Below are positions 42,021-42,119 of a stretch of 64,000 nucleotides of DNA, piece after piece. The position numbers were made by a program, and so were the translations under genes. Under the pieces are notes generated by a model that had not been told where the DNA came from, did not search any database, and saw only the letters and a program-made list of their open reading frames with translations. The DNA is from Escherichia coli O157 typing phage 14, in the sequence record KP869112; one strand, 5' to 3'. Position 1 is the stretch's first letter. Each line of letters begins with the position of its first letter.

Positions 42021-42119
42021 GGTGCTAGGTGATGGAATCGAACCACCTATGTATTCAACGACTACCTCGTCTATTTTCAGGATTAAAAATCCTCGCCCTT
42101 GCCAAAGGGCTTACCTAGC
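42021..42119 (-). tRNA. atypical tRNA-like gene (97 nt plus CC), Lys-like UUU anticodon arm and a 31-nt extra region
   Basis: Perfect 7-bp acceptor GCUAGGU/ACCUAGC, D-arm GCCC-UUUGGCAA-GGGC and T-arm GGUGG-UUCGAUU-CCAUC are canonical, but between them lie hairpin AGGA-UUUUUAA-UCCU and a second hairpin GACGA-GGUAG-UCGUU; isotype cannot be assigned confidently. Confidence 0.45.

Follow-up and report, generated by a model that had tools for sequence, protein, structure and literature searches.

Within the 64,000-nucleotide stretch of Escherichia coli O157 typing phage 14 analyzed here (record KP869112; the window), the tRNA gene cluster contains a 97-nt tRNA-like gene followed by an encoded CC (42119..42021, minus strand), which we refer to as X. 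Judged from sequence comparison, X represents a genuine, conserved and apparently undescribed family of phage tRNA-like RNAs and is more likely to mimic a tRNA than to work as one; the literature searched contained no description of it. Taken as a whole, the reading that we tentatively favour, and consider plausible though short of probable, is that X is processed like a tRNA, does not decode, and forms an L-shaped, five-armed mimic that most likely engages a host tRNA-binding protein, with a decoy role as the preferred version. A sequence-only reading of the window had singled out the same gene and named an inserted element, a suppressor or decoy tRNA and a tRNA-derived regulatory RNA as options; of these, the decoy or regulatory RNA comes closest, as a non-decoding mimic fits the data best, with a function that we infer.

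The window copy combines tRNA-like and irregular parts. Its acceptor stem, formed by GCUAGGU (RNA positions 1-7, 42113..42119) and ACCUAGC (42024..42030), is a perfect 7-bp helix, as had been stated before, and is followed by the linker A8-A9 (42111..42112), with A8 at the place where tRNAs carry U8. The D arm, GCCC-UUUGGCAA-GGGC (42095..42110), can also fold with six stem pairs around a UGGC tetraloop, the form known from tRNA-Sec and allo-tRNAs. Having A at position 8 instead of U and U at position 14 instead of A, it is not fully canonical, so that the earlier description of both D and T arms as canonical holds for the T arm and its loop but not for the D arm. At the position of the anticodon arm, hairpin 1 (AGGA-UUUUUAA-UCCU, 42079..42093) has 4 bp and a 7-nt loop or, alternatively, 5 bp and a 5-nt loop, the latter being present in the minimum-free-energy fold, where U32-A38 closes the loop. 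This hairpin is flanked by G26 (42094) and, opposite to it, G44 (42078), both invariant across homologues; the mismatched closing pair noticed previously for the UUUUUAA hairpin is a G/G mismatch. The adjoining segment, which we count as 30 nt and not 31, does hold the reported 5-bp hairpin and consists of the 5′ single-stranded linker AAAAUA (42072..42077), whose A-run is invariant or nearly so family-wide, the predicted extra arm or hairpin 2, GACGA-GGUAG-UCGUU (42057..42071), and the 3′ single-stranded linker GAAUACAUA (42048..42056), in which AUACAUA is invariant among all homologues. The RNA continues with the T arm GGUGG-UUCGAUU-CCAUC (GGUUCGAUUCC; 42031..42047) and, after the acceptor 3′ strand, ends in the discriminator A73 and the encoded CC (42021..42023), most other lineages having U73 and a full CCA. 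The minimum-free-energy fold of X is a five-armed cloverleaf of -34.2 kcal/mol (z=-3.66), and none of 200 shuffled sequences folded as well. The Rfam tRNA model (RF00005) assigned 35.5 bits to the window copy (gathering score 29, E=3.7e-5), treating 26 nt of the variable region as an insertion, and ARAGORN reported it as 'tRNA-???' with a 4-base anticodon. Both programs bear out the presence of a tRNA-like gene within the cluster.

Homologues were collected by BLAST and motif scans and confirmed with a covariance model (R1) built from the first ten sequences, the E-values of which are rough. This yielded 36 full-length copies, 35 of them distinct, scoring 77-118 bits, as compared to at most 35 bits for ordinary tRNAs in the same loci. 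The copies span five Vequintavirinae genera and were found in Vequintavirus, Avunavirus (Av-05), Seunavirus (PVP-SE1, SSE121, GAP31, 4MG), Mydovirus (KPP-1, Mydo, AV124) and the Erwinia phages Hena1 and pEp_SNUABM_01; X is also present in an unrelated N4-like Schitoviridae phage (Salmonella phage vB_SenP_UTK0002) and in uncultured viral contigs of 135-150 kb. Identity between genera is 71-79%. In every case X lies inside a tRNA cluster, with flanking tRNAs that vary by genus (Ser/Thr, Thr/Cys, Thr/Leu or Leu/Cys). Nearly all Vequintavirus phages carry it: 122 records contain a copy that spans 80% or more of X, as against 113 that match at least 80% of a 1-kb cluster query. Among 185,579 bacterial and archaeal genomes, a motif scan yielded no confirmed copy, its single hit failing the covariance model, and X thus looks phage-specific; two further motif scans of IMG/VR for more divergent viral lineages returned known members or chance hits only. 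Phage V18 (L005, 1456-1542) carries a deletion that takes out tRNA-Ser and most of X, so that tRNA-Tyr, from its 5′ end through the anticodon arm, is joined to the 3′ remainder of X across a short GUCG microhomology. Every one of the 36 homologues has the extra arm with its invariant flanks, which speaks against a recent insertion.

We assessed structural conservation on a model-guided alignment of the 35 distinct homologues (A3), which, being fitted to the model, favours the modelled structure; given the relatedness of the homologues, counts of shuffles are not to be read as probabilities. All 20 cloverleaf pairs were kept, with standard pairs in 700 of 700 cells, 11 of the 20 pairs showed double-sided (compensatory) changes, and the observed covariation score was reached by none of 500 shuffles. 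Sliding the 3′ partners by 1-3 columns lowered pairing to 32-45%. Comparison of homologues, which had been proposed as a check for a pseudogene, thus revealed no disruptive mutations. The acceptor stem retained 7 of 7 pairs in all 35 sequences, with compensatory changes at five pairs, three of the four core pairs of the D arm and two of the four pairs of the hairpin-1 stem covaried, and the T stem kept all five of its pairs. RNAalifold, run without the model's structure, recovered the same arms of the cloverleaf with a D stem of 6 bp and a 4-nt loop; the pairs U14-A21 and U15-A20 of this D stem never vary, so that they provide no covariation either way. The elbow pair between D-loop position 19 and T-loop position 56 was G19:C56 in 26 sequences, U19:A56 in nine and mismatched in none of the 35. 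The U19:A56 copies combine the D loop UUUGUCAA with the T loop UUAGAUU, and this switch, which is probably a single evolutionary event, keeps a contact that is relevant only in an L-shaped fold.

Conservation extends beyond the cloverleaf proper. An extra-arm hairpin was predicted in 27 of 27 distinct variable regions, with compensatory changes in its stem (for example ACGA/UCGU in the window and ACGG/CCGU in Av-05) and at least four types of loop (GGUAG, GAACUAACAGUA, GCGUGGAGU-like and UUUUAGG) that recur on different stems. The single-stranded flanks of this arm, G-AAA... and AUACAUA-GG, are invariant, the linkers measuring 6-10 nt. Invariant or near-invariant positions are in fact mostly non-helical, comprising A8, U14, U15, G18, A20, A21, G26, the G after hairpin 1, the A-run, AUACAUA directly 5′ of the T stem and the majority of T-loop positions. 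In the acceptor stem, nearly all members have G1-C72 and C2-G71, and most lineages encode U73-CCA; position 73 is A in the window's clade only and U or C elsewhere. These patterns argue that X is a selected structure and not a relic.

Against this background of conservation, the hairpin-1 loop stands out as the region of highest entropy (1.13 bits per column), with none of its eight columns invariant and a length of 5-8 nt. The loop reads UUUUUAA in the rV5 clade and UUUAUAA in Av-05; CCAUCAG, CCAUCCAG, CCUUCCAG and CCAGCCAG in Seuna- and Mydovirus; and CAUCAAA, UAUCAAA or AAUCAAG in Erwinia phages, UTK0002 and uncultured contigs, giving UUU, UAU, UCA, UCC or GCC as pseudo-anticodon triplets by lineage. 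Even between backbones that are nearly the same, the loop shows an indel or a substitution (CCAUCAG versus CCAUCCAG, for example). Most versions have A at position 33, where tRNAs carry U33. The stem has only four Watson-Crick pairs between the invariant G26 and G44, and pairing between the two end bases of the loop is often possible (13 C-G, 10 U-A), which leaves loops of 5-6 nt. Lineages with a UCC or UCA loop carry an ordinary tRNA-Gly(UCC) or tRNA-Lys(UUU) as well, and ARAGORN, one of the checks that had been recommended, called no tRNA for any homologue outside the rV5 clade. Decoding selection on an isoacceptor family would give the reverse pattern, and we therefore infer that the X family as a whole is non-decoding. 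Since the loop is the most variable part, changes in length and mostly lacks U33, a suppressor or Lys-decoding role for the family, the former among the options raised earlier, is unsupported. With regard to contacts of this loop, kissing between hairpin 1 and the extra arm gave no family-wide signal when RNAduplex was applied to real and shuffled loops. Of note, the Seunavirus copies L010, L079, L081, L084 and L085 have a hairpin-1 UCCA that is complementary to an extra-arm UGGA, with both altered in 4MG (GCCA/UGGC), which hints at a lineage-specific loop-loop contact.

These data suggest a model in which X would be co-transcribed with the phage tRNA operon and excised by host tRNA-processing enzymes, that is, RNase P at the 5′ end and exonucleases together with the CCA-adding enzyme at the 3′ end, to accumulate as a stable tRNA-shaped RNA. 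Host processing enzymes should accept X because its acceptor stem, T arm and D/T elbow are tRNA-like. The invariant single strands around the extra arm would most plausibly pack into the five-way junction and fix its geometry, such that the invariant core (A8, U14/U15, A20/A21, G26, G44, A-run, AUACAUA) may act as a rigid scaffold displaying two exchangeable loops. In this form X would most likely act as a mimic towards a host tRNA-binding protein, probably a factor common to Enterobacterales, since X functions, or at least persists, in the unrelated Schitoviridae genome. Our preferred guess is that infection-activated defence enzymes acting on tRNAs may be drawn to X as a decoy or competing substrate. 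Hairpin 1 would then be the bait and, in the window's E. coli phage clade, would copy the anticodon loop of tRNA-Lys(UUU). A decoy is favoured for three reasons. Reported targets of defence nucleases are Lys, Thr and Asn tRNAs for PARIS, Tyr for Septu and retron-Eco7, and Pro, Thr, Met and Ser for ApeA, and most isotypes of the cluster (Thr, Tyr, Pro, Met, Ser), together with the tRNA-Lys that is absent from it, are thus among them; the hairpin-1 loop evolves fast, as expected of an arms-race interface; and the window's A-UUUUUAA-UC is one base apart from A-CUUUUAA-UC in E. coli tRNA-Lys(UUU). As a further and doubtful extension, X might constitute a new class of phage anti-defence RNA, in which a scaffold with an exchangeable bait hairpin and a second loop traps, saturates or misdirects tRNA-attacking enzymes, the bait evolving by lineage with the defences of the host genus.

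Several observations weigh against the decoy model. Outside the rV5/Av-05 clade the bait idea loses ground, since the A33-type loops of most lineages (CAUCCA, AUCAA) are not copies of any host anticodon loop. The invariant linkers suggest that X has a specific partner, for which no candidate emerged; a tRNA-repair or tRNA-modification enzyme of rV5 was rejected in this role, as the rV5 genome paper mentions none. V18 has lost X by deletion, so that phages can do without it in at least some circumstances; an accessory role would fit this but is not proven by it. Finally, in the window's own clade the loop is a well-formed 7-nt U33/A37 loop with UUU, combined with the discriminator A73 in a phage without a normal tRNA-Lys, and because of this combination decoding is conceivable there.

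The corresponding rival, which we regard as unlikely, is that X of the rV5 clade works as an odd tRNA-Lys(UUU) that would be charged by lysyl-tRNA synthetase (LysRS), would replace host tRNA-Lys cleaved by defence nucleases such as PrrC or PARIS, and would owe nuclease resistance to its odd stem and extra arm. UUU and A73 are identity elements of E. coli LysRS. Thus the loop, the single-position difference from E. coli tRNA-Lys and the restriction of A73 to this clade all agree with this explanation, as do the lack of another tRNA-Lys in the window phage by ARAGORN, the annotation of the gene as tRNA-Lys in several records and the report of a T5 tRNA-Lys variant that rescues infection from PARIS. 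Yet the anticodon stem, with four Watson-Crick pairs between G26 and G44, is one short of every standard tRNA, its loop can shrink to 5 nt by U32-A38 pairing, and A8/U14 and the 30-nt five-way junction would still have to be accepted by the ribosome. Furthermore, because the sister clade combines this backbone with UAU and with U73 or C73, and the rest of the family has A33 and 5-8-nt loops, the scaffold appears not to have evolved under decoding constraints. Another possibility, which we judge improbable, is that X is a 7/5 relative of the allo-tRNAs, charged independently of the anticodon (for instance by seryl-tRNA synthetase, SerRS, via the extra arm and U73) and acting as missense, nonsense or frameshift suppressor at a codon that changes by lineage (UGA, GGA, AAA, AUA). 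Supporting points are the tRNA-Sec-like D arm, the long extra arm, U73 in most members, the diverse triplets including UAU and UCA, the 27-39 bits by which non-rV5 members score best on the Rfam tRNA-Sec model, and the label 'tRNA-TERM' given to the gene in Erwinia phage records. Orientation of the extra arm matters for SerRS, and the arm of X, sitting on single-stranded linkers of 6-10 nt, would be oriented unlike that of tRNA-Ser. The acceptor/T branch is 7/5 and not 8/4 or 9/3, most members carry A33, and loop length differs even among near-identical sequences. Moreover, no in-frame stop needing suppression was found, the split large terminase gene being due to introns with an HNH endonuclease and not to recoding, and proteome-wide missense insertion would hurt the phage too. 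Allo-tRNAs share traits with X and insert Ser at non-Ser codons in E. coli, but their anticodon stem is above standard length, that of X below it (PMC5389517).

Two further explanations do without any function in trans. X could act in cis, helping to process or stabilize the polycistronic tRNA transcript, for example as an entry site for RNase P or RNase E or as a spacer. RNase E sites are AU-rich and single-stranded, as are the linkers of X, and X is always within tRNA clusters, 2-7 nt from the neighbouring tRNAs. A spacer, however, needs no covarying elbow pair, encoded CCA or invariant junction, and X has different flanking tRNAs in different genera and moved into an unrelated Schitoviridae cluster, making this a very unlikely explanation. 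That X is a decaying tRNA pseudogene with an insertion is hardly credible: the 'tRNA-Pseudo' or 'tRNA-OTHER' labels of some pipelines and the deletion chimera in V18 would agree with decay, but pairing is fully retained, numerous pairs having changed in a compensatory way between genera, segments outside the helices are invariant and, at 71-79% identity between genera, the homologues are not recent copies of one sequence. Because every stem covaries, we consider a pseudogene ruled out in practice. The tRNA mimic with a candidate decoy role remains our preferred reading.

Phage tRNA clusters are being reinterpreted as counter-measures to tRNA-cleaving bacterial immunity. A tRNA shape under strong selection combined with a drifting anticodon loop fits neither the codon-supply model nor a simple model of cleavage-resistant replacement tRNAs. 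Should X indeed be a decoy or the partner of a tRNA-binding protein, phage counter-defence would gain an RNA-based mechanism, and X might provide a lead on the T4 species 1 and 2 RNAs. Vequintavirinae are common phage-therapy candidates, and given its inconsistent annotation X merits a covariance model of its own.

The cluster containing X (41776..42588, minus strand) encodes, in order of transcription and as detected by ARAGORN, Arg(UCU), Tyr(GUA), Ser(UGA), X, Thr(UGU), Met/Ile(CAU) and Pro(UGG), with 2-7 nt separating X from the adjacent tRNAs. The region 41700-42700 is 99-100% identical to rV5-like coliphages of the genus Vequintavirus, such as MaxTheCat/Bas57 and phage rV5, and the rV5 and MaxTheCat records annotate the cluster in identical order. 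A consensus scan predicted a sigma-70-like promoter (TTGACA-17-TAATAT, 42647..42675, minus strand) upstream of the cluster, the likely source of a polycistronic tRNA transcript, at the place equivalent to the 'P(tRNA)' promoter annotated in the rV5 record. The annotation of X itself is inconsistent over well more than 100 genomes: an identical sequence is labelled tRNA-OTHER, tRNA-Pseudo, tRNA-???(atcc), tRNA-Lys or 'hypothetical protein', or carries no label, and the rV5 reference record and genome paper give six tRNAs and omit X. The short 'hypothetical protein' coding sequences annotated over X, for example in SSE121 (L081, 185-268) and Mydo (L086, 226-427), are probably spurious open reading frame calls on an RNA gene. 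An origin of X from the adjacent tRNA-Thr by duplication was rejected, as the two are not notably similar in any genome, and BLAST matches of X to T4-like tRNA-Thr involved only the generic 3′ 30 nt.

The surroundings of X show several features of their own. Each of the two long spacers within the cluster has a predicted structure of its own. The one between Ser and X (42120-42217, minus strand) forms a four-way junction closed by UGUUGACC/GGUCAACA (-25.8 kcal/mol, z=-2.6), its 3′ end not being the same in the related contig L009, and the one between Tyr and Ser (42309-42422, minus strand) a long imperfect hairpin (-26.4 kcal/mol, z=-4.2). tRNA-Ser (42218-42308), detected by the rV5 authors with ARAGORN only, and tRNA-Tyr (42423-42509) obtained 37.9 and 33.7 bits with the Rfam tRNA-Sec model, both below its threshold and both above the general tRNA model. 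Most records give the tRNA with CAU anticodon (41864-41938) as tRNA-Met; the BASEL phage record has it as a tRNA-Ile for AUA, which would imply a lysidine modification. Adjoining the cluster, the large terminase gene (38242-40672, minus strand) is divided into three open reading frames (38242-39330, 39438-40028 and 40244-40672); its rV5 counterpart is annotated as a join of three pieces with an internal HNH homing endonuclease, i.e. as containing introns, and a recoding tRNA for the split gene was therefore discarded as a candidate. In the Schitoviridae phage UTK0002, directly upstream of X, there is an unannotated tRNA-like gene (L083, 1410-1497) with a selC-like 8-bp acceptor stem (GGAAGAUU/AAUCUUCC), G73-CCA, a UGA (Ser) anticodon, an apparent 4-bp T stem and 30 bits on the Rfam tRNA-Sec model, which by eye resembles an 8/4 tRNA-Ser of the allo-tRNA type. 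Finally, 18 'Campylobacter phage' records (MG0656xx; C12, C14, A147 and others) match E. coli rV5-like phages at 98.6-99.7% identity along the 1-kb cluster query and at 99-100% along X, likely reflecting mislabelling or coliphage contamination.

Compared to known RNA families, X is an irregular or mimic-type tRNA-like RNA. With canonical tRNAs it shares the 7-bp acceptor stem, the 5-bp T stem, the T loop UUCRANY and the G19:C56 elbow, which covaries between GC and UA. It departs from them in the anticodon arm, where a 4-bp stem, loops of 5-8 nt and mostly A33 replace the 5-bp stem, 7-nt loop, U33 and conserved anticodon, and in having invariant A8 and U14 in place of the U8-A14 tertiary pair. 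The window copy passes the threshold of the canonical model, but only with its 26-nt insertion, and other lineages score better on tRNA-Sec (RF01852). The latter model is the best Rfam hit for non-rV5 members, with scores below its gathering score of 47 bits, whereas the tRNA model wins for the window copy. Similarity to tRNA-Sec resides in the long extra arm, in a D arm that may form 6 bp around a loop of 4 nt, and in the loop CAUCAAA of several X lineages, the E. coli selC loop being CUUCAAA. tRNA-Sec, however, has a 13-bp branch (8/5 or 9/4), UCA and G73, whereas X has a 12-bp branch (7/5), no G73, A33 for U33 and, in the window, a UUU loop. Class II tRNAs (Ser, Leu, Tyr), represented by tRNA-Ser and tRNA-Tyr in the same cluster, likewise join a cloverleaf to a base-paired variable arm, but through joints of 1-2 nt; in X, the variable region measures 30-40 nt and places the hairpin between long invariant single strands, next to a 4-bp anticodon stem, A8/U14 and a variable loop. 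Neither tmRNA nor Y RNA provides a match. ARAGORN detected no tmRNA, pair 3:70 is U-A, C-G or A-U instead of G3:U70, and the variable region has just 30-40 nt; the Y RNA-like model (YrlA, RF02553) gave no hit on X and a weak one of 25 bits on neighbouring tRNAs, and the ends of X form an acceptor stem, not a Ro-binding helix.

Closer parallels are found among irregular and phage-encoded RNAs. The allo-tRNAs or 'irregular tRNAs' of bacteria and phages are defined by a lengthened anticodon stem and an acceptor/T branch of 8/4 or 9/3, and some UAU-type members with five-stem junctions are apparently unused in translation (Mukai et al., NAR 2017; PMC5389517). X has in common with them the tRNA-Sec-like D arm, the long extra arm, the diverse triplets including UAU and, with respect to G73/U73, the U73 of most copies (A73 in the window). 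It lacks their defining branch, being 7/5 in 35 of 35 sequences with an A8-C mismatch as eighth pair, and differs further by its 4-bp anticodon stem, the invariant 6-10-nt linkers at the extra arm, mostly A33 and a restriction to virulent phages of enterobacteria. Bacillus cereus tRNA-Other is reported to be a tRNA-like small RNA that has a cellular effect and no role in translation (PMC3399842); unlike the phage-borne X, it is bacterial and associated with a genomic island. Phage anti-defence tRNAs (T5 tRNA-Lys against PARIS, T5/T6 tRNA-Tyr against retron-Eco7 and Septu) also reside in phage tRNA clusters and invite comparison with the tRNA-Lys(UUU)-like loop of the window X, but these are canonical, decoding tRNAs with few escape mutations, whereas X has a non-canonical architecture and is a candidate only. 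By analogy, we suggest that the nearest functional counterpart of X is T4 rnaC. We know of no function for the T4 species 1 and 2 RNAs (rnaC, rnaD). Homology of X to rnaC or rnaD was rejected, the family model scoring rnaC at 10.9 bits (E=0.05), below T4 tRNA-Thr (27 bits), and both T4 RNAs are longer than X (139 and 119 nt), with a minimum-free-energy fold of rnaC that is branched and not a cloverleaf. Nonetheless, like X, they are small stable RNAs inside a phage tRNA cluster, and rnaC combines its branched fold with a T-arm-like hairpin, CCGGGUUCGAAUCCCGG.

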